A stretch of DNA of 64,000 nucleotides from NCBI GenBank assembly GCA_000004695.1, contig CM000151.3:5248001-5312000 (forward strand), given 5' to 3'. The notes under the pieces were generated by a model. The model did no database searches. It was not told the DNA's origin and was given only the letters and a program-made list of their open reading frames with translations. This DNA is from Dictyostelium discoideum. Taxonomy: Eukaryota. Below, one piece after another: positions 30,925 to 63,304 of the stretch. How positions within the stretch are numbered: the first letter of the stretch is position 1; the number at the start of each line of letters is the position of its first letter. The position numbers were made by a program, and so were the translations under genes.

Positions 30925-32648
30925 CTTACATGTAATTCAGTTGCAATCCATTCAACTAAATCTCTATTTGAAGTCATAACTCTTGAAAGATCAGATTCTA
31001 ATAAACCAATGATATTTGCACCATGATCTTTAATTACTTTTGTAACATTTGGGAAACTATTTCTACCAAAATTATCATAACCAAAATGAATTGTCCAAAT
31101 CATTGATTTAATATCAGTTGGAGCAGTGTTTGTAACAGAGGTTGCTGTTAAATCTCTTGTATAATGATGACCTGCAATACTTGAATCAGTTGGATGAGTG
31201 ATTGCTCTATTTACAGAGAATAAAAGTAAAAGTACTAATAAACCAAATAGAATATTGAAAACATCTTTATTTGGATAAGAAGGTTGATCTTTATTTGATT
31301 TTTCTCTTTTAATTGATGATGAGGAAGATCCACCTGATGATCTTAATGATTTATATACAAATGCAATACCCGTTGCTAAAACACATGCTATAATTAATGT
31401 TTGATTACGTTCTCTTAATAATGTTGATCCTAACCACCATGGTACAAATTTCTAAAATATTAAAAAAAAAAAAATAAAAAAAAAAAAAAAGTTAATAAAT
31501 ATTAAATATTAAAAATAAAATTATTAAAAAAACTTATACATTACATATGAAACAACATAAATTGCCCAAAATAATAAAACAGTATAAGTTAACATAGCAG
31601 AAGTGAATAATTGACCTAATTTTTCAGTATTTGAAACTTTTTCAATTAAAACGATCCAAAGTGAATTACAATAAGCACCCAAGAGAGAAGCAGAGATTAA
31701 ACCAATGAAACCAACGATGAAAGGAACGGTACCAGAGCACCAACCAAAGATAGCGGATAAAATGAGAGCAAAGATGAAAAAGTTTCTAGAGGTAACGAGA
31801 TGTTTCTTCTTTGAGATCACTACACCAGCCATCATACCCAAGATAACGAAAAGACCATATGGGAAAGGATTGAGACCGACCCAACGTGGAATTAAACCAT
31901 AAGTTGAGAAAAGTAATTGGTTAAAGAAAATGATGCCACCAAATGAGACACCAGTGGCGATGGTTGAGCTTGAGGAGGTTTCATGCTCGATAGACCAAAT
32001 GGCACCACTCTTCTTCTCGTCAGAGGCATTGATGTTCTCACCCATTAAAATCACAAATGCGACCAATACTAAAATCATACCAAACACTATCCAATTGCTC
32101 CAAGTCATGAATGGGTTGATGGAGAGGTATGGCAAACGAATGATTGCATGTAAAACAATTGCTAATGCATAGGCGTAGGCACCACGTTCACGACGTACTG
32201 CTGATTTTACATTGGCAAAACTATTGCATTGAGCTAACCAATCGAGAGCAACTGCAACCGATACGAAAAAGGTTTTGGTGACATGTGGTGATGAGAAAAT
32301 TCCAAATTCGTCATTCTTGATCGATGCCTTGTCAATGGCCCATGGGAAAATTGCAAAGAATGCTAATAATTGTGCTACCAAACGGATTGGTAAATTGAAA
32401 CGTGATACTATTCTATTGATAAATCCAATACCTAAAAATATTGGTGTAAAAATTGCTAATAATGCTGCCTCCCAACCTGTGAACCCCATAAATCCCATTG
32501 GGAAAAACCAAATAACTGATATAAATTCTACCATTAAACTCCAATTTACAAATGCTAATATACCATCTGCTAATAACAATATTAAATATTGTTTATTATA
32601 TCCACCTCCATAATTTTTACCTTTATTATTAATTGGTGTTGTTGACAT
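30271..32648 (-). CDS. CWH43 / PGAP2-interacting protein-like: N-terminal multi-pass membrane domain plus C-terminal endonuclease/exonuclease/phosphatase (EEP) domain; exons 31545..32648, 30930..31451, 30271..30789 (~714 aa)
   Basis: About 10 predicted TM helices in exon 1. The EEP region is MIWTIHFGYDNFGRNSFPNVTKVIKDHGANIIGLLESDL...ELH|MYSDFGPEPSRNTWGCALLTIFP...VIVTHFGNTED. There are GTAATG and GTAAGT donors, all exons are phase 0, and intron 2 contains a (TTA)n tract. Confidence 0.7.
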
Positions 32649-33470: not shown

Positions 33471-34615
33471 TTAATTTTTTTTAATATATAACTCTGATGA
33501 CTCAGCATCAGTAGTAACAGTATTAAGATGAATATTGGATTTAGTTGAGGATGATGTTGATTTCTTAATACTTGAAGAACTTGCAAATCTTTTATCAAAA
33601 GCATATAAAATTGATATGGCAGGTATGATTTCAGTGATTATTAAACCAATGAAAGTAAAGATTATACTAGTGACAGCTTTTACAGAGATTAAAATTATGA
33701 AAATTGAATGAAGTATGAAAGCAACTGATAGAATGATAGTTAGAGTTTTAATTTTTGATTGATTACTCGAATAGGAAGTAGCAGCAGCACCAGCAGCACC
33801 ACTACCTTTACTATTTGAAATTAAATTCCTCATTAATTTAACAATTGAACTACCTAAATAAATAAAAGCAATACCAATTAAAAGTGATAGTAATGCTTGT
33901 ACCACTGAATAAACTATTGATACCACTTGTTGAGGTGTTGAATTTTTCATTTCTTCAAATATTAATCCAACGCAATCTGTATTTGGTTGATAGGGTGTAT
34001 ATTGGAATACTAAAACAATAGCAATGAAAAACAAGTAAATCATAGAGTTTACAGAGGCTACAATTGTGTAGAGTCTTTTTTTCATATTACCAGCTGATGG
34101 ATTAAATTTTAAAACTACAAATACAATTACATACCAAAGTGCAATGATAATACTAAACGATGATAGATAAATGAATGTTGGTAGTACCACTAATACATAA
34201 TCGGATGAAGGTACATCAGTTAATGCACCACTTGGAAGTACAAAGAAATAAATACCTCTCATTATAATGAATGTTGATACTGAAACAATTAATAAATGAG
34301 TTAATTGTAATGGTTTCTTTGATTTAAATCTTTCAATTAAAAATTCAATGGTTTGGAATAAACCATAAATACCAACTAAAATGAAAAAGCATGCTAAAAT
34401 ATAAACTAATACAGTGGTTTTCTTATCTAATACTTGTTTATCTTTATCCTCCCAATCTGATACTCTATTAATTGGATAAATTATAATCTCTTTAATTCCT
34501 TCAGTTATATTTTCAATATTTGAACAATAATAATTAATATTATTAATTAATTTTAATTTTGCTTCACTATTTAATGGTATTAATTTATTATTAACACCAT
34601 CAATACTTTCATTAC

Positions 34616-34652
<37 letters not shown>

Positions 34653-37405
34653 TGATAATTTTATTGCAAAATCATAAATTGGATATGATTTTAAATTTAT
34701 TGATGTAATATTAAAATTCATACAAATTAAAAAATTTTTAAAACCAAATTCAGATTTTAAAATTATACCATCATTTAAAAGTGTACCAATGATTGCATCA
34801 TTTGAATTTAAAATTGCAAAATTATCAGGTTTAAGATAAGATATGAAATTATTTGATAATGGTTGTGGAGTTGAAATTGAATAAATGGTTTTAGAAATTT
34901 GAGATATTGATATCATTTCACAACCATGTGAAATTGAATCATTTTTGAAATTTAATAAACCATTAAAGAATGAAATCGATGTTTGTTCACCATTACAAAC
35001 TATTGATTGAGCCATAATGAGATTGGTTGATTGGAAACATTCTGAATTTCCACCAACATTACAACTACATAAAATTGAATTTAAATAGTTTTCTCTCTTT
35101 TCTTTTTGACAAAATGCTTCTGATGAATATAAAACTGACACTTGTTTATCGGTAGCTTGAACTATTTTCTCATAAAATTTTTGATAATTTAAAACATCTT
35201 TATATTGATATTGAGTGGTGAATGTTTTATTTTCATACCATTTCGATTGAACAAAAACACCTGGTAACCATACTGCATCAACCCATTGAAATTTATTCAT
35301 CCATTTAGTGGCACTACCTGATAAATTATGTTGTTGATTACAATTATTTTCATTCATTTCATTAAATCTAAAATTGTATGGTAAATTATTTGGATTTAAC
35401 ATATCAACTGAATCTTTATAAAATAAATCAATAGTTCTACAACCCATATATGATAAACATTCATCTTTATTAGTTGAAGGTTTCCACCACCATTTTGTTG
35501 TATTAACTCCTTGCTGTTGACAAAGTTCTTTATTTGGTATATCAAATTTTGGATAACAACCTAATGGTGAATCATATTCATCATAGAGTTTACAAGATTT
35601 TATAGATGTTGTATCAACTGTATGATTTGAAATACATTTACCTAAACCATTTGGATAAGGATGTTCATCATCTTTTTCAATTTGATCATAAAAGTATTGA
35701 TAATCAGAACAACGTCCTCTATTTAAACATTCTTGTTTAGTTGTACATTCAATTGGTTTTAAATAACAAAAATCTCTGATAGTATCTAAAATATCATATT
35801 CATCTGGTTTTGTTAAATTCCATACTGGACCTATACAATTATCACTATCTTTTGATGGACAATCAATCCAAGTATAACCACCATCATTGCAATCTTGTTG
35901 ATTAGTGATTGTTGTATAACAAAAGTTATCAATAAATTGAAAACCTGTTACTGATTCACAAAGTGTTGAATCCATTACATATGAAGAATCGGTTTCATTA
36001 AATTTAAACCATAAGCAATTTTCAATTAAACCTTTACATTCATAACCACATGGTTCAGAACAACTACCTCTACTATTTTCACAATCATCTTTATAAATAT
36101 TTGGAATATAACTACCATCGGCTAAAAGACACATTGATAATCCTAGTTCACAAGTTGTTTGATCAATGGTGACATCTTGGGTTGGAGAGAATGGATAATC
36201 TTGATCATATTGAATATCGGGTGAACCAACATGAGATAAAGAACCATTATAAATATGACAAAGTGTTGAGTTTACATCAGTACAATATCCACAAAAACTA
36301 TGTGATGTTGTAAATTTAGTTAATGGTCTACAACGGAAATAAAACTCTGAATAAACTTGTTGGTTATACCCTTTTGGTAACATTAAAAAGTACGCATCAC
36401 AATTAACTTGTTCTGGATTCTCTAAAATTGTTGAATAATCAATCTTTTCAAAAATCCAACCTCTAAGTAAATTTTGAGTTTTATAGGTAATTTCATTTGA
36501 TTGATCAATAAGATTTCCAGTTTCAGAGTTAATATTATTTGTTATATAGTATTTATAAGTTGAATGTTTTGAATAACTTCCTTCAATAACCCAATCTTTA
36601 AATTTTAATTCATTATGAATTGAATTGATAATTGTTGAATTTATATCCAATGTTGAAATTAATGAATAAAGAGTACCCAATGGAATCGCATTCAAAACAC
36701 ATTCAATATAATCATTATCGGTAATTTCATAATTTACAATACATTTCCTAGTGAATAAATCACATTTTCTTGTTCCATGATTAAAACTTTTACAATCATC
36801 ATCAAAAGTACAAAAAGGTGGTTCTAAAATTTTAATTCTACATTTTCTAAGTGCATCATATGTATTTAAATAAGTATTTGTAATTTCTAATCTTGGAATT
36901 TTACATTTATCTTGTTCTTCTCCTCCTTCTCCTCCTCCTTCTAAAAATGATGAGGAATATTTTTGTGTAATATATTGATCTAAAACAATTGATGTACAAT
37001 CTAAACTAAAACATTGATTTGTAATTTTATTAGATTCATAATCTTGAATTTTTAAACTTTGAGTTTTAATTGTTTTTTTTAAACATACTTGAGAGAATAA
37101 TAAATGAAAATTACAACATGGATCTAATTGATAAAGTGGATCTGATATTAAATATGGACATTGATAAGATGTTACATTTGTTTCAAAATTTTCTAATTTT
37201 AAATAATTTAAAATTGAATTTTCACAACCAATCCAATTACTTGTAGATTGTAATAAACCAAGTTTATATTTCCAATTATTTATATCTTTAATATTATCTT
37301 TATTATTCATACTTGTATTAATTATTTCTTGAACTTTTTGAAATTCTTTATAATTACATTCTTGAATTAATTTTAAATTAAAATCTTTAATTTTTAATTT
37401 AATAA

Positions 37406-37439
<34 letters not shown>

Positions 37440-38993
37440 TTATTATTAATAAATTTATTATTAATAAATTTATTATTAATAAATTTATTATTTTATTATT
37501 TTATTATTATTATTATTTTTTTTTAAAAAACTTACATCACCATCAAAATTAAAAAGATTTGATAAAAATTCAATTTCAATATTTAAAGAATCTTCAAGAT
37601 TTAAATATTCAATTATACCTTTACCATAATTTATTGAAAGTATTAAAGCAACTTGATAAGATTTTCCTTTTAATTTAAAATTATCTTGTAAATCATTTTC
37701 CATTATTTGATAATTAAAACCAGGAATAAATTGTAATGATCCAGGTACTGGCCATAATGGATTAATATTATCGATTGGTGATAGAATTGAATAAGGATTA
37801 CAAGAACTAAATTTTGGACAATAGAAATTTTGATTACTTTTTGTTATAATCTTTGAAGATTGAATCAATGCTAATGATGCCTCTAATAAACCCATTGAAC
37901 TAATTGGTTTCATAATTAAACCTTGACTCTTTATAATTGATATTGAATTTGGATAACCTAAAGAATCTTCACAATATTCATTTAGGCAATCCATTTTCAA
38001 GTATAATAATGTTGGATTTTCAAAATAAATTGTTAAACTATTAAATTTATTATAACCATCATCTTTAAAATAAAATAAAAATAAAGAATTAGTAAATTTT
38101 TAAAAAATGATTTTTTTTTTTTTTATTTTTTTTTTATACTTACAACTTTTAATAATCCATTTTGAATTTTGATCATTTGGTTCAGTAATTAAAGGATCAT
38201 CAGTTATAAATAAAGTTGATTCTTCAGCAAAGAAATTAATTAAATAAAATCCAGGATCTTTTACATCAAAACTATATAAAGGATCAGCTATTGTTAAATG
38301 ATTACCCAGGTTTATACATGTATGGTTTGAATCAATATTTACACAATTGGTTGTGTAAGTGTCACCATCTATTGAGGTTGGAATATTTTGATAATTAATT
38401 TCAATTGAAAAAGTTGCTTCGAAAGTTATTGGTGAAATATCCAAGAAATAAGTACCAACATAATACAATAGATTACTACTTTCTGGGCAAACATTTAATA
38501 GTATCTCACTTTCTAATGAATTGAATCTATAAAAATCTTTTTTAAAATGTGAACCAATCATATCTCCATTTAGTATTGTAAATGTGAAAGTTCCTTTGAT
38601 AGGTATCAACTTTATTGTAAAACCTAAATTTGGTTTATCATTTAAAAATCTAAATTGGGTGATGTTTTTGAGAGTATAGTTTGTTGTTGTTGGTGTTGTT
38701 GTTTGGCTAATTTCTAAATTCACCCATTGTTCTGTTTCATCCAATTCAATGCATTTAGGGTTTACACAATTTTCTGTTGGATTATTGGATTTAGTATAAT
38801 CACATAAACATGTACTTTCTGTATCATTATTAAATGTAATTACATTCCCAGTATCAACAGTAAGTGGGCACCCAATTGCAGAATAACGATATAAATCTTC
38901 ATCAAATTCTATATCATATAATGCATACGAAATATCGACCCCCATCGTTGTCACATTCTTATTATAAACAATTTTTTTGATATTACATTTATT

Positions 38994-39044
<51 letters not shown>

Positions 39045-39216
39045 ATGGGTTAGTTTGGTTTGTTACCAAAAAAAAAAAAAAAAAAAATTTCAAAAAAAAA
39101 AATTTCAAAAAAAAAATAGTAAAAATAAAAAAAAACATGTCAAAGTATGAAATTGTGTAATTACCTTTAACCAAAAAAATAAAATAAAAAAGAAATAATA
39201 TTATTGTGGCTTTCAT
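33471..39216 (-). CDS. Large receptor-like protein (~1770 aa): signal peptide, ~1500-aa Cys-rich/N-glycosylated ectodomain and a C-terminal seven-transmembrane domain; exons 39172..39216(?), 38144..38957(?), 37536..38062, 33471..37406
   Basis: Three long same-strand ORFs (38100..38954, 37488..38000, 33471..37310) are joined by GTAAGT donors and ttaaAG / aaaaAG acceptors with matching phases (...SKWIIKS|Y|DGYNKF... and ...FNFDGD|VIKLKIKDF...). There are seven hydrophobic helices in the last 330 aa. A hydrophobic leader MKATIILFLFYFIFL sits upstream, and its junction to exon 2 is uncertain. Confidence 0.6.
37439..37494. repeat. 15-bp tandem repeat (TTTATTATTAATAAA)x3.7 inside intron 3 of the 7TM gene
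   Basis: Direct repeats visible in the sequence. Confidence 0.85.
38996..39043. repeat. T48 homopolymer (A48 on the coding strand) inside the first intron of the 7TM gene
   Basis: Uninterrupted 48-nt run. Other extreme runs are A66 at 23742..23807, T62 at 39828..39889 and A56 at 6754..6809. Confidence 0.9.
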
Positions 39217-42526: not shown

Positions 42527-43786
42527 TTAATTTCTTTGTATTCCATTTATTTTAAAGGAGGTAATACTCTTTTTTGTTTGTATTATTTTTTCTATTTCTT
42601 TGGTTAGTTTTTCATCTTCATCTTTAATACCTATTGTTAAACTATTGACCTTTTTGGGAAGAAATGAAAGGGATTCAATGTTTGTAAAGTTTGAACCAAG
42701 AGTTAGTGATGTTACAAATGGTGGAATACTGTTTGCTTTTAAATTTATATTATAATTGTGTAATTGTAAATCTGTTACAGAATAAGGTAGAAATCTTTTA
42801 TTAACAGGTTGTGTAAAATTAAAACCACATCTAAGTACTAATATTGATTCGTTTGGAAGATTAGTGCCATTTTCTTCAATGTTAAATTCATTGCCTAAAT
42901 CTAAATATTTAACAGATTCTGGTATTGAATCAAATTCAAGGTTTTGATTTAATTTATTAAATAAAAGATATTGAACAGATTGTGGTATTGCTCCTGGTAT
43001 TATCATTTTGTCATAAAAAGATAATGAAAGGTAGTTAATATCATTACCAATTGATTCTAATAAATCTGGTTCATTAGTTTCTAATTCTAATCTCTTTATA
43101 TTTGGTGATAAATACTTTTCAAATACTGAATCGCCTTCAATTTGAGTCTAAATATTAAATTTGTAAAAAAAAAAATTAGAATTTGGTTTCTTTCTTAGCA
43201 ATTTGTTTTTAACACTTACATTAGATAAAGATGTAATTAAACTTTCAATACAATGTCTAGCGTTTGTATCATACTGTAAACAATTTTGAATTATATTTTT
43301 AAATGAATTGGATAAGTGTTTTGGTATAGGAGGAATACCTTTATCATCTCTTTTAGACTTGGACAAATCCAAACCAGCCATTTCAATCATTGTACAACCA
43401 ATACAAAAAATATCAGATTTACTACCTGCTTTACCATTTTGTAATTTAACTTCTGGTGCCATATGTGAATCTGTACCTACAAATGAAAAATACTTTGAAC
43501 TCTTTTCAATTTGTTTTGATAATCCAAAATCTATGAATTTTACAATGATTTCATTATTTTTATCTTGAACCAAAAAGATGTGATCACCTTTAATATCACG
43601 ATGAATAACACCTGATTCGTGAATTTTCCTAAGTGCTTTGACGATTTTAATCATTAAAGATTTTATTTCTTCCTCTTCAAATCTTTTATTTGGTTTTTGT
43701 TTTATTAAGTCTGAAATGGATGTGGCATCTTCAATGTATTCTGTATAAATGTATTCCCCAATCTTCCTGAAAATGCTCATTATCAT
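42527..43786 (-). CDS. FNIP-repeat protein kinase (downstream paralogue): kinase C-lobe exon 43220..43786 and FNIP-repeat exon 42527..43147
   Basis: HRDIKGDHIFL, DFGLSK and GTDSHMAPE place this in kinase subdomains VIb-VIII. A GTAAGT donor and a tatttAG acceptor give a 72-nt intron in phase 0. C-terminal FNIP repeats (CGFNFTQPV, LGSNFTNIESL). The first ATG lies after the N-lobe, so the 5' end is unresolved (see findings). Confidence 0.55.
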
Positions 43787-45512
43787 TTAACATATTATCT
43801 GTTGATTGATTAAATGTGTTTAAAGGTGGTGATTTTTTAAAATTAACTATTTTACCATTGATGTTTATTGATGTGATATGCGATGGTATATATTTTTTTA
43901 ATTCCTCTATTTTGATATCGTTTTTGAAACCAAATTTCAAATTGATTATTGATGAAGGAAGATTTGATAATGATTCAAAGTGAGCGAAATTTGAACCAAG
44001 GGTTAGCATTATTATTGATCGAGGGATACTATTAGGTAGTATTTTTAAATTGTAATTGTATAATTGTAGATCTGTAACTGATGAAGGGATGTATCTTTGA
44101 TTAATGGTAAATGTAAATCCAGTTCTTAGTGTTAGTATCGAATCTTCAGGAATTAAAATTCCATACTTTTCAATATCAAATCCATCACCAAAGTCTAAAA
44201 ATTCTGGAAGAGTTAAGTTTATTTCGTTTTGAGAAAATTGATTTAATTTATTAAATACAAGATGTTTAACAGATTGAGGAATTGATCGTTTTTTAAGAGG
44301 ATGGTTGAATGATGGTAGCTTTAAATACTTAATACTGTCTGGTAATATACCTGGATCTAAAGGATAGTTGTATGATTGTAATATTAAGTACTCTACACCA
44401 TTAAATATTACCTTACTTTCAAGTGGTTGATTGTAGGTTGGTAATTCTAAATATTTTATACCATGAAAAGTTGGTGGAACAATTACCTGATTGAAAAGTG
44501 GTAATGTGGTACATTCATTTGGAAGGTAAATTGGTTCTATTGTTTCCACTACGCTGTTTTTAATTACATAGTTGTACAATTCATTGGAATTGAATCTAGC
44601 ATTTGGTTTGATTTGTAAACAATGTTGGATAATGTTTTTAAAATGATTTGATAAATGATCAGGGATTACAGGAATACCATTAATATCTAGCAATTTTAGG
44701 TCACCACCTACAATTTCAATTAATGATGAATCATTAATTTCAAAATGTAATTCTGAATCAAATATGGAATGGTCAAAACCAATTATTTTAATAAAATCTG
44801 TAGGTAACATTTTATCATTTTCATCATAAAGTATAAGAATATTTTGGCATTTAATATCAAAATGAATTATACCCATATCATGAATACTCTTTATTGATTT
44901 TATTATTTCAGTAGCTACAATAAATTGTTCTTTTTTATTTAACTTTCCAAATAATCTAGATAATGGAATTGCTTTATCAATATATTCTAAATAAACGTTA
45001 AAAGTATTATTTCCATCTTTACCATACCCATACAACTTTGGAGAGCATTTGCAAATATTTAAAATATCTATAATCCCGACCTATTAACAATGGGTTAATT
45101 AAATTTATAATGGAGGAAATTTAAAGAGATTTTAAATAAGTATGCTTACATTTTTATGTTTTTTGGTATAATAAACTTTATTTTCTGAAATATTTTTTTG
45201 AGGTTTATATTCTTCATGAATATATTGAATAATTTCCCAGTTTTGTTCGACATGTATTGGGTTATCTGATAATTTGAGATCTCTAACCCTAGTGGTTAAT
45301 GTTTCAGATGTGGGCAATTGTTTATTGCATGGTAAATGGAGACATTCCACACTATTTGGTAATGTTCCTGGTGTGAGTGCTTGATTATAGGATGATAAAT
45401 CGAGACATTCCACACCATTTGGTAGTACTCCTGGTGTGAGTGCTTGATTATAGGATGATAAATCGAGATATTTTACAAAAGGTGAGACTTCGGCGGTAAA
45501 AACAAATTCTTT
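43731..45512 (-). CDS. FNIP-repeat (pseudo)kinase paralogue (upstream copy): exon 43731..45080 and an upstream FNIP-repeat exon 45149..<=45512 with no identifiable in-frame ATG
   Basis: The kinase-like core is ILNICKCSPKLYGYGKDG...HFDIKCQNILI...IGFDHS. The HRD and DFG motifs are degenerate, so it is probably a pseudokinase. It is followed by about eight FNIP repeats. A GTAAGC donor and a ttaatAG acceptor (phase 0) join an upstream exon that contains a 66-bp tandem FNIP-coding repeat. Confidence 0.5.
45345..45480. repeat. 66-bp coding tandem repeat (2.1 copies), each encoding one 22-aa FNIP-type repeat (ECLDLSSYNQALTPGxLPNxV)
   Basis: Near-identical 66-nt units on the plus strand (…gacattccacac[c/t]atttggta[g/a]t[a/g][c/t]tcctggtgtgagtgcttgattataggatgataaatcgag…). 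Confidence 0.8.
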
Positions 45513-45774: not shown

Positions 45775-48700
45775 TTAGTCAGATTTAAAACCACTAGAAA
45801 GACGTTGAGTAAAAGATTTTCTACTAACATGAGAAGTTGATAATAAATTATTAAAATTTGAATCATCATCATTCTCTAATGAAATTGTACTACCACTACC
45901 AGTTGAATTTCTATTTGGATTTGAACTATTTCTATTATGAGATTTTGTTGGAGTATTGTTACCACTACTTGAACCAGTATTATTAATCATTGAGGAATTT
46001 AATTGAATAACTGGAGAACCACTACCACCAAAATTATTACTACTTCCATAGATACTACTATTACTAAGATTATTATTACTACTAGTGCCATTAGAATTTG
46101 AATTTAAAGTTGGATAATAGGAGCCTTCTGGTGGTAAAACACCTAAAGACTCCATTAAATCAGTTAATTGAATATAACCTTGTTCCATTTCTTCTTGGAA
46201 TTCTTGAGAGGATTGATTTTCAACTAAACCTTTATTAATGAATAATGCTTCAGAGCAACTACCCAAAAATAATGATAAACTTTTCTTTAACTTTTTAATT
46301 TGTTCCAATGGATAATTATAGGCACCACTTGTTGGGTCAGTTGCCAAAAATACTCTACAAATTTCCTGTGGACCAATGTTAACTTGTAATCTTAGAGTAC
46401 CTTGAAGTACTTGTTGAAGTGTTTTTGGATTTGGTACTTTTGAACGAACTTCATTTGAAATGGTTTCAGTTCGTTGATCAATGGTTTCAATTGAATTTTC
46501 AATGGGTGACAAGATAACCTCTTGTTTTGAAATCACAGAGATACGTTTCTTTGTATATGGGAAATAGTTTGATGTCTTTAGAATGGTTTTACGTTTATAT
46601 TGTTCAGCGATTGAATTTGCACGACCTGCACCACTTTCAATGAATGGAGTTTCGAAAATGAATCGATTCAAATGAACGATTCTATCGAATGGAGTTCTAC
46701 GACCAACCAATTCCTCCTCAGTAAAGTAGGGTACAACAGAGGTAATTTGAAGATAACATTTGGCAGCATCTTGTTCAATCGATGAAATATCTACAGTTGA
46801 ACCTTCAATGATTACAATTGAATCCTCTGGTACAGAGAGTTTCTTTGAATAAAGTGATTTCAAACGATCTTTAATCTCGACCAATCTTGTAATCTTTGGT
46901 TCTTTATAGATGAATTCTTTACCATTCATCTCTTCAAATCTCTTTCCATAGAGACCAACTCTATAGTATGAACCAAGCATACGAGATTGAGTATTTGTAC
47001 ATTCAACAATTCTCTTGAAAATATCTTGTAAATCACCATGACAACGTGCCAACTCTTGATAATTTAAATGTTCTTCATGAACTGGTAATAACAATTTATA
47101 GACCAAATTTGCAATTTCAAAATATTCACTCTCTTTTAAGAGTAAAATAGCTTCTTGAACCAATTTCAAAAAGAAATCCAATGTAAACGATTGATTATCA
47201 TCGGCTCCATCTTCTTCACGTTCAATGAATGTATGAGATTCCTCTAAAGAGTTTTTATTAATTGCCATGAAATTATTTGAACCATTAATAGTTGGAATTG
47301 GTTTACCAATCAATGATAGATATTCAGCTACCAATGAAGACATATGTAAATAACATTGAGCTGCCTCTACATAATTCTCTTGAGTACGATGGAAATCTGC
47401 TAAACCTTGTAACCAACAAATACGAGTATCAGCATTACTTTTATTATTATCAGCGATACGATGATATAAATCGGCCACCATTTCAGGATCATCACGATGA
47501 TTATTAATCTTTATATTATCAATTACAAATGTATGTAAACGTTTGGTTAGATCTTCAATTTGTTTTGAGAATGATTTAGTACCAGCTTTATCAGCTTGAG
47601 CATAGGCATAGGAATTAATTGTATCCAATGATTTCTTTAAGAAATAATCATCATTGATACTTTTTACTATTGTTGATAAACCAATTGTAACTTGAGTTTT
47701 TGTACGTACGAAATTCTTTTTAGTTTGTTCGAAATTCTTTCTAAATAGAATATAGGTGAATGCTGATGCCTCTTCACGTGTGGTTTGATTCACTGAATTA
47801 CAATGACGAATTACTGCATTACAAAGATCCAAACAGAATGAATTATTATTTTCAAATAATATCTTTGGGAATCTATAAATGAATTGACGTAATGTTGCAT
47901 AAAGTTTTGGTACCAATTGAACTGGTTGATTCTTTTTTAACATTGAATGTAAAAGATTGAATATCTTTTCAATTACATCGAAATAATGTGTTGTTTTAAG
48001 ATCTCTATCGTATTCACACATAAATTCATCAACAACATCTAAAACTACAGATCCAACTTCCAATGCTAAATGACTCTCTAATCTATCATCATAATCTGAA
48101 ATATTAATTTTATTTTGTGCTAATGTACTTTTCATTCTTTTTTCATTTCTAAGTGTACCACTACCTGATGAAACATCTCTTGTTGTACTTGGTGAATAAT
48201 TTGAATTATTATTTTGATTTTGATATCCTGATCCTGATCCATTTAATGATGATGTTGATGTTGATTCAATTAAACTACCACCACTACTACCACTTGAACC
48301 ACTACTTTTTGATGAATAACCTGAACCACTACCACCACCACTACTTGTTACAAATGATGTTGATAATAAATTTGAATTACTTGTACTATTAATTAAAATA
48401 GTTGAAGATGATGGACTACCACTAACATTATTATTATTATTATTACTACTACCAACATTATTATTATTAGAATAATTATTTTCTAAAACACTCTTTCTTG
48501 AATCAACTCTTTTTTCACGTAATGATCTATTATATAATTTTTTACTACCATATGGTGAATTTCTAGAATTTGAATAAAAATCTTCTAAAATTGATTTAGC
48601 AGTTGAAGTACGTAAAGATGTTGAAGATTCAACTTTATCCATTAAAATTTCTTTACCAACAAATTCGAAAATCTCTAAACATTGATTTAAAATATCAAAT

Positions 48701-51667
48701 AATGTTACATATTTTGCTTTTGGTTCTTCACGCCACCAAATCTTTATTAGATTGATATGAATAGTTTTCAAAAGATAAATGAATGAAACTAAAATATTTC
48801 TTTTCATAATAAAAGAATCATCTTTAATATTATCCCAATTATTTACTACAATGGTTAAATAAGGTGTGAAAACACCAACGATTCTTTGTTTATTTGATTG
48901 ATCGAACCATCTTGTATCCATTTCTAATCTTGTTAGGGTATCTCTTAATGAATTTGCAGCATCCATACGAATTAAAGGTATTTTTGAACCAATACCAGCG
49001 CTAATATTATTTAAAAGTAAATCTGAAAGGAAATGTTTTGAAGAGGTTAAAATATTTGTCAACTTTGAGGTTGAATCGATTCTAAATGGTAATGGTATAT
49101 TCAATTGAACGAAATAATCATTTTGGCAAATGATTCTAAGGAATTCGAATTTCAATTCATAGATTTCCATTTCATTCTCACCACCGATTTGATTGTTATG
49201 AGTGAAATCGTTGACTGCACGATCAATGATTTTAAATACATAACCCCGATCAGCTATTGAAACCAAACAAGATATGAAACCTGCTAAACTTCTAATTAAT
49301 TCTTTAGCCAATTTAAAGGTATGTTTTGCACGTGTTGATGATTCCCATCTTAGAATTGAAATCAATTTCGCCAATTGTGGTCTAACACCAACGAATCTAC
49401 CCTTACGAGTTTTATTCTCTTCTCTCTTATTACGTTCAATCAATGATAATGCCATTGATTTATGAATTACTTGAAAGAAGAATCTAGAGAATCTAAGAAT
49501 ATTTTCAGAGTTTTGTTCTTGGAATCTAACCAATTCTAACCATGTTTTAATTAAAACCTCATATGTTGGTAAAAATTCAATATTACTACCTGCTTGATTG
49601 TTTACATTTGAGAAAACATATTTAACATAACGATCCGATATAGTACTACCAACATCATTAACCATTGATAATATTTCACCAATAGTTATAAATGTTACCA
49701 TTGATAACTCTGATGAATGTTGTTGATTTGTCATTAATCTAAATAATTGATTCATTAAAATTGGGAAAAATTGAATTATACATTCTAATTTACTTGATGG
49801 TAACAATTTAATTGATTTAATTAATTGTTCCATTGTTGAATTTGATGGTGATATATTCGTTGTTGTTGTTGTTGTTGTTGTTGTTGTAGTTGTTGAATTA
49901 TTATTATTATTATTATTACTATTTGATAAATTTTGAGATGAAATTGTTGGTGAAGTTAAAATTGAAGGTGAAGTTACTGATGGTGTTGAAGTTGGAGTTG
50001 GTGATAAACTTGGTGAAGCTAAACAATTATTTATAAATGAAAACTGTGAAATATTATTAAAGAAACTATTTAAATAATCATCAGTTGAATGAATGGATGA
50101 TACTAATTTTGAACGTACTTGAAAGATTGGTTTCTTATTATCAATATATTTGATTGTTGCCTCTTGATCACGTCTAGTATAACGTGATGGGAATTCATAA
50201 GCCAATGGTAAATTGAAAACTTCTTCACCAATCATCTTTCCATATTGAATGATTGGTAAAACACCATAAGCCACTGGTTGATCGACTAAATCACCACCAC
50301 CACTACTCTTTTGACAAGCGATATGATAGAATGTGAATAGAATATGTAAAGATGGTGATGGTGATAATGGTAATCTAATCTTAATTTCATCATTGAAAAC
50401 TGGTGTTTTTGAATGATAGGTAACTTGTGTATACGCTTTGGAATTGAATGATTGAGTTTTACTCTTACCATAGATTGCTTTCAAACCTTCTGGACATAAT
50501 GGATTCTCATCAGTCTCTAATAATTGTATTTTACATGTAAGATTTCTAGCTGCAAATGATCCACTACGATTTGATAAATTCAATGTCTCTGGATATAAAT
50601 AAAGATTATTTACAAATTCTGTATTAATTTCAAATCTTTGATTTGATGAAAATTCATGACATTCTTTAATAATATTTTCAATACCAATATTTGATGGTAT
50701 TTTACCAGGTTGATTAATATTATTATTATTTTGTTCAGTACTATTTTGAGTTGTTGTTGTTGTTGATTGTTGTTGTTGTTGATCTAATTGTGGTAAATCA
50801 ATTTTAATTAAAGAACTATTTAAAATAAATTTTTTATTATTTAAATAAGGTGATTGTTGATCATTTGGTAAAATTTCTTTAATATCAACTAAACACTGAC
50901 CAGGAATAATTTTTAATTTCTTTGCAGAAGCACTTTTTGAACCTTCTGATAAAGTTGAATCCAACATTGAAGAATCAGTCATTTCTGAACGATGACGATA
51001 GAGTGGACGAATTGGGGTATCTTCACCTACACCCTCTTCAAAAACTGGTACACAACCCCAACAGAAAGCTTGTCTAAATGCACCCAATCTTGTGCAAGAT
51101 GATTTAATTGATTCTTTGAATTTATCCTTTTCCTTTTCTTTCAAGTTCATTTTAATGTATGGTTCAGAATGATCCTCTAAATCACCGGTTAAAACTTTTT
51201 CAACCTTAAGTATCAAATAAATATTCTCCAACTCTGATGAAGATCGGGCGGTAACATTAAATATTGCAGATTTTGCCAATGTTACATCATCGACAACCAC
51301 ATCTTTTGATGAGGCACCCGATGAAGTTGTTATATGACTAGTGGTCATTTTAAAGGATTTATCATTGATGAAATCGAAATAGAATGTCTCTGATAATCTT
51401 GCTTTCTTTTGAATATCATATAAATACATTGAACAATAGAATGGTTCAGGTTCATCATCACCATCCCAAAATTTAAATGATAAATCTTTGAATGTAACTT
51501 GAATAATTCTTTTCTTTTCTTTTTGATATGGTGTTGGTTCTTGATATTGTACAGTTGGTTCTGATAATGTAAAATATGAATATAATCCAAATTCTGTATT
51601 ATTATTTTCACCATTATTATTATTATTATTGTTATTACTATTATTATTATTTTCACCATTATTATTT

Positions 51668-51701
<34 letters not shown>

Positions 51702-52728
51702 TGTTAATTAAAACTTTCTCCTTTCTAAATTGTCTTTCTAAATAATGTAAATGTAATTTATCAGGTTTATCAGTTTTAAGTGTATTTTGAATTTGAAATT
51801 GATGTTGTTGTGATAAATAATTAACTTCTTTAAGATTTTGTTGTTGTTGAAATTGTAATGCTGCCATTTGTTGTTGTTGTGGTGTTTGTTGTTGTGGTGC
51901 TAATTTGGCTTCTAATGCTGCTTCCGATGCTATCTTTTGAGCTTGTGATATACTAATATTAACATTACTATTTAAATTATTAATATTTACAATTGGTTCC
52001 GTCTTAAACTCAATTCTTTCCTCTGTCAATTGATGTACTATTGCACCTGGTGTTTCGTTTTTATAATAATTAAATGTTTTCAATGATTTCCATGTATTAT
52101 TTGAATAAAATTTAATACAATCATCAATATGTTGATTCTTATTTTCTTTATAATCCTATAAATATTTTTAAAAAAAAAATAATTAATAATTAATAATTAA
52201 TAATAAAAAACAACAATTAATAATAATTATTATTATTATTTTTAAAATACAAACAAATGGATTAGATTTAATTCTATTTTCTTTTGGTAAATTTTCAATT
52301 TGATTTTGTGTTGCATCATCAGGGATTACAACTAATTCTCTAGAGACTTCTCTATTGATTTCTTTAGATTCATAGTAATATCTTTCGAAATCGAATGGAT
52401 AATCTTCTTCTTTTTCAATTTCATCCTCTAATAGAATCGATGGGATTTGTCTTGTATTTCTCTTTTGGTAGTTTTCATTATATTGTGCCAAGTCACTGGT
52501 TGAATTTGATACTGAAACATTACCACTACTACCACCACCACCATTGGATATTGATGATGTTGATGATGATGCTGATGATATCGATTGTGATAATATTGAT
52601 GAGTTTGGTGATGATGATGACATTGAGGTTGGTAATGTTTGACTATTACTTGATCCTGTTAAATTCATACTACTACCACCTGTCGATTTTCTACTCTTTA
52701 AAAATGTAGAAACTTTTTTACCTTCCAT
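45775..52728 (-). CDS. DOCK-family Rho/Rac guanine-nucleotide exchange factor (DHR-1 C2-like and DHR-2 catalytic domains); exons 52255..52728 and 45775..52155 (~2284 aa)
   Basis: DHR-1 region: ...NRSGSFAARNLTCKIQLLETDENPLCPEGLKAIYG...PVFNDEIKIRLPLSPSPSLHILFTFYHI... DHR-2 region: ...ICWLQGLADFHRTQENYVEAAQCYLHMSSLVAEYL...PYFTEEELVGRRTPFDRIVHLNRFIFETPF. Exon 1 (the Ser-rich ORF 52183..52728) joins through a GTTTGT donor and a ttatAG acceptor (99-nt intron, phase 0). Confidence 0.8.

Positions 52729-54344: not shown

Positions 54345-63304
<8,960 letters not shown>

Follow-up and report, generated by a model that had tools for sequence, protein, structure and literature searches.

The closest described relatives of the protein treated here are the plant proteins TOM1, TOM3 and THH1 (PF06454, formerly DUF1084), which are about 290–300 amino acids (aa) long and have a short N-terminus and no ectodomain; TOM1 and TOM3 are tonoplast residents and tobamovirus host factors, and the family was regarded as plant-specific (PMC2530877, PMC10576174). 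Interaction with TOM2A and with the tobamovirus replicase is likewise characteristic of these plant proteins. The closest layout is that of the adhesion G-protein-coupled receptors (GPCRs), in which a large modular ectodomain is followed by a GAIN domain and a seven-transmembrane (7TM) core of the 7tm_2 type. The origin of this GAIN-7TM module is currently put in stem holozoans (PMC12716839); for family 2 GPCRs of Amoebozoa a survey reports no GAIN domain (PMC10445921). The locus lies in a stretch of 64,000 nucleotides (nt) of the Dictyostelium discoideum genome (assembly GCA_000004695.1, contig CM000151.3, positions 5,248,001 to 5,312,000; hereafter the window), in which one long gene on the minus strand spans positions 33471–39216 and encodes a membrane protein of about 1790 residues. 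By profile comparison its membrane core belongs with the plant proteins, and its layout resembles that of the adhesion receptors.

How far do these likenesses go? With TOM1/TOM3/THH1 the Dictyostelium protein shares the homologous seven-helix core at about 17% identity, including a Trp before the first transmembrane helix (TM1) and the motif pairs LPTFxYFT / PSLAFFTTY in TM3, IN..LY / INAVVY in TM4 and TEIIP / VEILP in TM7, but it adds a signal peptide and a disulfide-rich ectodomain of about 1450 aa. With adhesion GPCRs it shares a large modular ectodomain, a GPCR-like 7TM fold and a helix plus beta-sandwich of the GAIN-B/ZU5 class, the position of which before TM1 we infer; unlike them, it has neither 7tm_2, nor the HL↓T/S site of the GPCR proteolysis site (GPS), nor the TxFAVLM consensus of the tethered agonist, nor HRM, EGF, cadherin or other known adhesion modules. 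The ZU5 and FIIND domains of ankyrin, UNC5, CARD8 and NLRP1 are cytoplasmic and some cleave themselves at an S-F↓S-type site, whereas the Dictyostelium domain would be extracellular and disulfide-bonded and lacks a conserved cleavage motif. Finally, the Remi-sans-famille (RSF) 7TM proteins of choanoflagellates and other protists are similar by description in having a weak structural link to THH1/TOM1/TOM3 and amoebozoan homologues, and differ by description in consisting of the 7TM domain with no additional domains (PMC12716839). That study of holozoan GPCRs mentions THH1/TOM1/TOM3 only as a weak structural neighbor of this domain-less class (PMC12716839), a phylogeny-wide survey of dictyostelid GPCRs never mentions TOM1 or THH1 (PMC10445921), and in our searches of the literature on amoebae the family was nowhere described.

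A divergent THH1/TOM1/TOM3-type membrane core

To which family does the helix bundle belong? The original prediction, made from the sequence by eye, had found no obvious family assignment because the protein falls below single-sequence thresholds: searched against Pfam and NCBIfam, it matches nothing at E≤1. For the membrane core this verdict was wrong. When 28 full-length relatives were each scanned singly against Pfam, 21 matched PF06454 at E≤0.01 (best E 6.4e-14), and the matches of single members extend over positions 5–264 of the 273-position model. The relatives P0005, P0029 and P0006 score 35.6, 26.7 and 26.2 bits and thus above the 25-bit gathering score, and P0035 reaches 24.6 bits. 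The orthologue of D. purpureum carries the automatic UniRef name 'THH1/TOM1/TOM3 domain-containing protein'. Moreover, comparison by hhalign of the 28-member amoebozoan alignment with an alignment of plant TOM3/THH1 proteins gave a probability of 98.3% and an E-value of 2.6e-14 over 251 columns, spanning aa 1462–1753 of the query and 36–293 of TOM3, which is the entire heptahelical core; with the five closest sequences the probability was 92.3% (E 5.5e-7). For the plant set a TOM-like sequence was used as bait only, and the 15 aligned sequences are the retrieved Arabidopsis TOM3 and THH1 and named orthologues, all tagged PF06454. These comparisons of profiles place the 7TM core within the THH1/TOM1/TOM3 family as a divergent member.

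No family other than PF06454 was found in the Pfam scans of the 28 relatives, in particular none of 7tm_1/2/3, Frizzled, Dicty_CAR, Lung_7-TM_R and GpcrRhopsn4. The first inspection had seen no cAR/crl, frizzled-like, GABA-B-like or LUSTR signature, with which the scans of query and relatives agree, and cAR, frizzled, GABA-B and LUSTR were rejected as assignments since the corresponding Pfam families are absent from the 28 relatives. Neither query nor relatives match the Pfam models of the classical Dictyostelium GPCRs (cAR/crl, Grl/GABA-B-like, frizzled/smoothened-like, LrlA) or of LUSTR/ITR. Sequence searches of the PDB with the 7TM profile and with the full-length family profile gave noise only (E>0.7).

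The predicted count of exactly seven hydrophobic helices in the last ~330 residues held up, as hydropathy and AlphaFold2 helices concur on aa 1475–1744 (TM1 1475–1494, TM2 1515–1534, TM3 1556–1575, TM4 1592–1611, TM5 1638–1657, TM6 1700–1719, TM7 1725–1744). Modeled with a 5-sequence alignment, the last 334 residues form seven long helices at low confidence, with a predicted local distance difference test score (pLDDT) of 58.6 and a predicted template modeling score (pTM) of 0.53. That the core models as a GPCR-like helix bundle is strongly supported. Lys and Arg residues number 4, 4, 5 and 5 in the three predicted intracellular loops and the tail as compared to 0, 1 and 1 in extracellular loops (ECL) 1–3, in total 18 versus 2, a distribution that together with the leader fits an N-out/C-in topology.

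The ectodomain and a ZU5/GAIN-like sandwich

The large Cys-rich extracellular region of the original prediction, for which more than 60 Cys had been claimed, was recovered with about 1456 aa and 63 Cys. In an alignment of seven dictyostelid sequences 56 Cys columns are invariant, and in one of 28 family members 45, which gives strong support to an ectodomain of about 1450 residues with some 32 predicted disulfides that is conserved end to end in the family. The ectodomain matched no Pfam family in any of the 28 members, in line with the earlier failure to recognize an EGF, CRD or leucine-rich pattern, and it has no sequence relative in the PDB. The supposed richness in N-x-S/T sequons did not survive, since the 21 sequons observed are what composition predicts (22.6 ± 4.0 in shuffled sequences). 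Cys1622 in ECL2 and Cys1438 in the penultimate strand of the juxtamembrane domain are invariant in 28 of 28 family members. Since the 63 Cys of the ectodomain and Cys1622 add up to an even extracellular total of 64, Cys1622 is suggested to take part in a predicted disulfide that would link ectodomain and helix bundle.

An AlphaFold2 model of aa 478–1462, calculated with a 58-sequence family alignment, reached a pLDDT of 78.9 and a pTM of 0.81. It begins with helical and mixed Cys-rich regions and ends with a 42-residue helix (model residues 741–782) followed by twelve beta-strands (model residues 796–981, aa 1273–1458), of which the last, IIIYPINRV (family consensus YF.I.R), is followed after 16 residues by TM1. 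A Foldseek search of the PDB with this model returned nothing at E≤1e-3; its top match was a GAIN+HormR fragment of BAI3 (E 5e-3, probability 0.96), and CD97 was third. A second fold search listed the GAIN domains of CD97 (9.4, 8.4), CELSR1 (8.3), BAI3 (7.5) and of GPR126, GPR97, GPR56, GPR110 and latrophilin-3 (6.6–5.3), as well as the FIIND of CARD8 (8.2) and NLRP1 (6.5, 6.0). According to a reported proposal (Liao et al. 2014, cited in PMC11697300), GAIN, ZU5 and FIIND domains go back to a single ancient autoproteolytic fold, which makes this list a coherent one. The models thus strongly support a beta-sandwich of the ZU5/GAIN-B/FIIND class somewhere within aa 478–1462. The fold tools report no aligned ranges; domain size, the 12 strands and the order of helix then sandwich suggest that the matching element is the juxtamembrane sandwich directly before TM1 with the long helix preceding it. 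GAIN domains combine a helical subdomain A with a subdomain B, the latter of 12–14 strands (PMC11697300).

Would such a domain cleave itself? In the family alignment no HL↓T/S, CxC or TxFAVLM motif was found, the penultimate strand contains a single Cys, and the loop before the last strand varies across the family in sequence and in length (3–11 residues). Because no conserved HL↓T/S-like motif precedes the last strand, autoproteolysis of the GPS type is probably not a feature of the family. A poly-Asn tract at about 34609–34652 (aa ~1396–1409) falls into a low-confidence loop of the proposed sandwich and has 12 Asn, as compared to 7 and 10 in the close relatives P0001 and P0002.

An amoebozoan multigene family

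A word-indexed search found six relatives, all from dictyostelids, two of which carry PF06454, and the same kind of search with the 7TM alignment returned two metagenomic fragments only and missed known relatives. An exhaustive hmmsearch of 1.84 billion representative proteins with a profile built from the query and four relatives over aa 640–1765 matched 694 proteins at E≤1e-3, of which 144 remain at E≤1e-30, showing that the word-indexed search (6 versus 694) had under-reported the family. About 35 relatives of 1600–1870 aa match the profile end to end and are colinear with the query in BLASTP from the N-terminus to the tail at 24–35% identity. Signal peptides are present in members with complete N-termini. 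All named members among the matches belong to Amoebozoa (Evosea), including Dictyostelium purpureum (at least four paralogues), D. citrinum, D. dimigraforme, D. firmibasis, Cavenderia and Acytostelium and furthermore Planoprotostelium, Protostelium, Cavostelium and Clastostelium; the other members looked up derive from metagenomic or SRA-derived contigs. On these grounds the locus belongs to an amoebozoan multigene family. A search of the window with the protein by tblastn found no second copy of the gene.

In some members the gene models are unusual. P0005 of D. citrinum (2711 aa) and P0009 of D. firmibasis (3464 aa) each contain two head-to-tail family copies, which indicates tandem paralogues merged by annotation. 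In P0051 of Planoprotostelium fungivorum (2331 aa), called 'Guanylate cyclase' in UniRef, a complete protein-kinase domain (aa 198–451) and a weak EF-hand match precede the family region; either kinase and receptor are fused in this protein, or the gene model is a merged one.

Gene structure

The window has a GC content of about 20–25% and poly-Asn tracts, both typical of dictyostelids. Three large minus-strand open reading frames (ORFs; 38954–38100, 38000–37488 and 37310–33471) and a short upstream ORF make up the one gene, for which the features are, all on the minus strand:

39165–39216: exon 1, ATG and signal peptide MKATIILFLFYFIFLVKG, phase 1; this leader exon is also found in the orthologous loci L001 and L002
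38995–39164: intron 1, 170 nt, GTAATT...AG, 13% GC, long poly-A and poly-T runs; same position in L001 and L002
38970–38978: A7+TT homopolymer stretch with 2 extra nt as compared to both orthologues, which breaks the frame between leader and exon 2
38144–38994: exon 2, N-terminal ectodomain, beta-rich, with conserved G-x-D-x-x-Y-A...D-x-E-F-D motif
38063–38143: intron 2, 81 nt, GTAAGT...AG, 7% GC; junction WIIKS/Y identical in the annotated orthologue P0002
37536–38062: exon 3, ectodomain, conserved NPLWPVP motif
37407–37535: intron 3, 129 nt, GTAAGT...AG, 2% GC
33471–37406: exon 4, aa 478–1788 and stop; Cys-rich ectodomain, juxtamembrane domain, 7TM core and tail
34452–37406: modeled ectodomain segment aa 478–1462, helical/Cys-rich region and beta domains (AlphaFold2)
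34464–35186: juxtamembrane module aa 1218–1458, 42-residue helix and 12-stranded beta-sandwich, proposed to be ZU5/GAIN-B-like
33606–34415: 7TM core aa 1475–1744, THH1/TOM1/TOM3 type
33474–33605: cytoplasmic tail, 44 aa with 16 Ser/Thr

Residues are numbered throughout for a protein of 1788 aa in which one A is added to the A7 run, which restores the frame and makes the protein one residue longer than in the reading of the orthologues. The four-exon assembly of the original prediction stands in part: exons 2, 3 and 4 join cleanly into an uninterrupted frame of 1770 codons and the leader exon encodes a signal peptide, but exon 1 is not in frame with exon 2 and needs a 2-nt correction or a weak donor. 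Introns 2 and 3 have 2–7% GC as compared to 23–27% in the exons.

The loci of the two closest database proteins were taken for comparison, L002 from GCA_054859355.1 (labeled D. discoideum) and L001 from GCA_054859235.1 (D. cf. discoideum). Across exon 4 the ratio of nonsynonymous to synonymous substitution rates (dN/dS) is 0.23 versus L002 and 0.36 versus L001, and by this measure the gene outside the exon 1/2 junction is under purifying selection. Nucleotide identity to L002 is 92.6% for the locus and 86–88% for the flanks. An unusual polymorphism like that of tgrB1/C1, considered for a protein that is 95% identical to one labeled D. discoideum, was rejected, since the flanks have diverged even more than the gene and the difference therefore reflects the distance between lineages and not diversification of this gene.

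Putative role and alternative explanations

What could such a protein do? We consider it probable, at roughly 0.6, that the product is an N-out/C-in heptahelical glycoprotein composed of ectodomain, ZU5/GAIN-like sandwich and TOM1-type core that acts as a putative surface sensor or adhesion-type receptor. It is strongly supported that the signal peptide leads into the disulfide-rich ectodomain, and it could be imagined that ligand binding, contact with a cell or particle, or force on this ectodomain would provide the input. The rigid juxtamembrane sandwich, possibly together with the disulfide between ECL2 and ectodomain via the invariant Cys1622, would relay this input to the helix bundle, which would signal through its Lys/Arg-rich loops and the phosphorylatable Ser/Thr-rich tail.

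Several points weigh against this reading: 1) leader and remainder of the gene are in different reading frames in the window; 2) the 7TM model is of low confidence (pLDDT 58.6) and matches to GPCR folds may partly reflect a generic seven-helix bundle; 3) the query itself has no Pfam match at E≤1, its assignment coming from profiles and relatives; 4) the fold searches gave no aligned ranges, which leaves the juxtamembrane placement of the ZU5/GAIN-like domain to inference, and Foldseek found nothing at E≤0.001; 5) there is no GPS motif; 6) plant TOM1 resides in the tonoplast and, in a split-ubiquitin assay, showed no binding to GPA1, a G-alpha subunit (PMC10576174, PMC2530877), so that membership in the family does not imply a role as a receptor or with G proteins.

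The main rival, which we hold to be rather unlikely, is that of a scaffold or housekeeping protein of endomembranes (lysosome, contractile vacuole or Golgi) instead of a signaling receptor, with a 7TM core that, like plant TOM1/TOM3 in the tonoplast, organizes membrane complexes and a giant glycosylated domain that is lumenal and either protective or cargo-binding. Precedents for a GPCR fold with a luminal beta-sandwich in Golgi and lysosomal residents are the GOLD-7TM proteins TMEM87 and GPR107/108. In addition, the core is homologous to the tonoplast proteins TOM1 and TOM3 (PMC10576174), and in the one assay found TOM1 failed to bind G-alpha (PMC2530877). An ectodomain of this size, with its ~32 predicted disulfides and a ZU5/GAIN-like domain, is however typical of surface receptors, and several paralogues per dictyostelid genome are a pattern closer to sensory and adhesion families than to housekeeping factors.

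The broken frame raises the alternative that the allele of this genome is disabled, the 2-nt excess uncoupling signal peptide and ectodomain so that no correctly targeted protein is made. Splicing from the consensus donor GTAATT (39164) to the acceptor that the orthologues use (AG at 38996–38995) leads to a stop after 14 codons, while both orthologous loci, which have the same leader exon, intron and acceptor as the window gene, are in frame: downstream of the acceptor they have GAATAAATGTAATATCAAAAAATGTTTAT, read as G-INVISKNVYNKNVTTMG. The excess lies at 38978–38970, where both orthologous loci have TCAAAAAATGTTTAT and the window TCAAAAAAATTGTTTAT (A6+T versus A7+TT). Moreover, the exact protein was not found in a collection of 15 billion sequences, in which a Met-GVDISY start and a 1279-aa ORF were sought. 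On the other hand, the other 1770 codons are free of stops with a dN/dS of 0.23–0.36, both differences are changes of homopolymer length, as is typical of assembly errors at ~20% GC, and two in-frame GT-AG rescues exist in the window, both via weak GTT donors and with no others. Intron 1 contains at 38996–39045 an unbroken run of about 50 A beside long T runs, a type of sequence prone to length errors, and this bears on the frame problem just downstream. Since the rest of the gene appears to be under purifying selection, we consider an assembly error in a homopolymer more likely than a real lesion, and a disabled allele seems less probable still than the endomembrane protein discussed above.

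The overall layout, the GAIN matches of both fold searches and a last strand ending 16 residues before TM1 would agree with a true family 2 (adhesion) GPCR, in which the core is secretin-type and a GAIN domain cleaves itself and holds a tethered agonist, but 7tm_2 is matched by 0 of 28 members, the core aligns with TOM3/THH1 at 98.3% probability, the HL↓T/S, CxC and TxFAVLM motifs are missing, and the loop before the last strand is variable; this assignment, for which 7tm_2 is absent from the query as well as from the 28 relatives, was rejected and has become highly improbable. Separate genes, or ORFs that arose by chance, are a very improbable reading of the three large ORFs given frame-preserving GT-AG introns with GC far below the exons, annotated orthologues (P0002 and P0004) that cross the same junctions, and the ~35 colinear full-length relatives, among them single transcriptome ORFs. 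The concern of the original prediction that RNA might assign the ORFs to separate transcripts is answered at the level of the family, as TRINITY ORFs of Protostelium, Clastostelium and Cavostelium and intronless contigs of 5.2–5.6 kb carry the whole architecture in one ORF.

Implications of the architecture

The 7TM family as such is already known, and databases already detect its domain in amoebozoan proteins, as the automatic UniRef names attest. What appears to be new is that a TOM1-type core is combined, repeatedly within Evosea, with a ZU5/GAIN-like domain and a giant ectodomain that lacks annotation. It is conceivable, though we would sooner doubt than assert it, that there is a receptor class peculiar to Amoebozoa, in which a juxtamembrane sandwich of the GAIN/ZU5 type and an ectodomain of about 1450 residues sit on a core that is TOM1-type and not secretin-type. 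If true, the logic of big ectodomain, GAIN-like domain and 7TM core would have arisen outside Holozoa, independently or earlier than thought, and the arrangement, with its sandwich preceding a different core, would either have been invented a second time or date further back. In that case the family would look like surface receptors in its other members, with the short plant proteins TOM1, TOM3 and THH1 as its minimal relatives. Should the juxtamembrane assignment as GAIN-like hold, the architecture would surprise specialists of GPCR evolution. Furthermore, TOM1/TOM3/THH1 are known almost only as a plant host factor of tobamoviruses, and Dictyostelium offers tractable genetics for the native role of this core. 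The ectodomain, which has no sequence relative in Pfam or the PDB and yet is confidently modeled, is a source of uncharacterized disulfide-rich folds.

Neighboring genes

The gene is flanked downstream by a multi-pass membrane protein of the PGAP2IP type (31527–32648, minus strand) and upstream by a FNIP-repeat protein kinase (43734–45035, minus strand). The PGAP2IP neighbor is annotated downstream of the gene in both L001 and L002, and the FNIP kinase upstream in L002 only. The window also contains, on the minus strand at 45778–52083, an ORF of 2102 aa for a DOCK-family guanine-nucleotide exchange factor (DOCK-C2 and DHR-2 lobes A, B and C) and, on the plus strand at 55850–63301, an ORF of 2484 aa for a MOR2/PAG1 (Furry-like) cell-morphogenesis protein in which the N-terminal, middle and C-terminal Pfam regions are all present.

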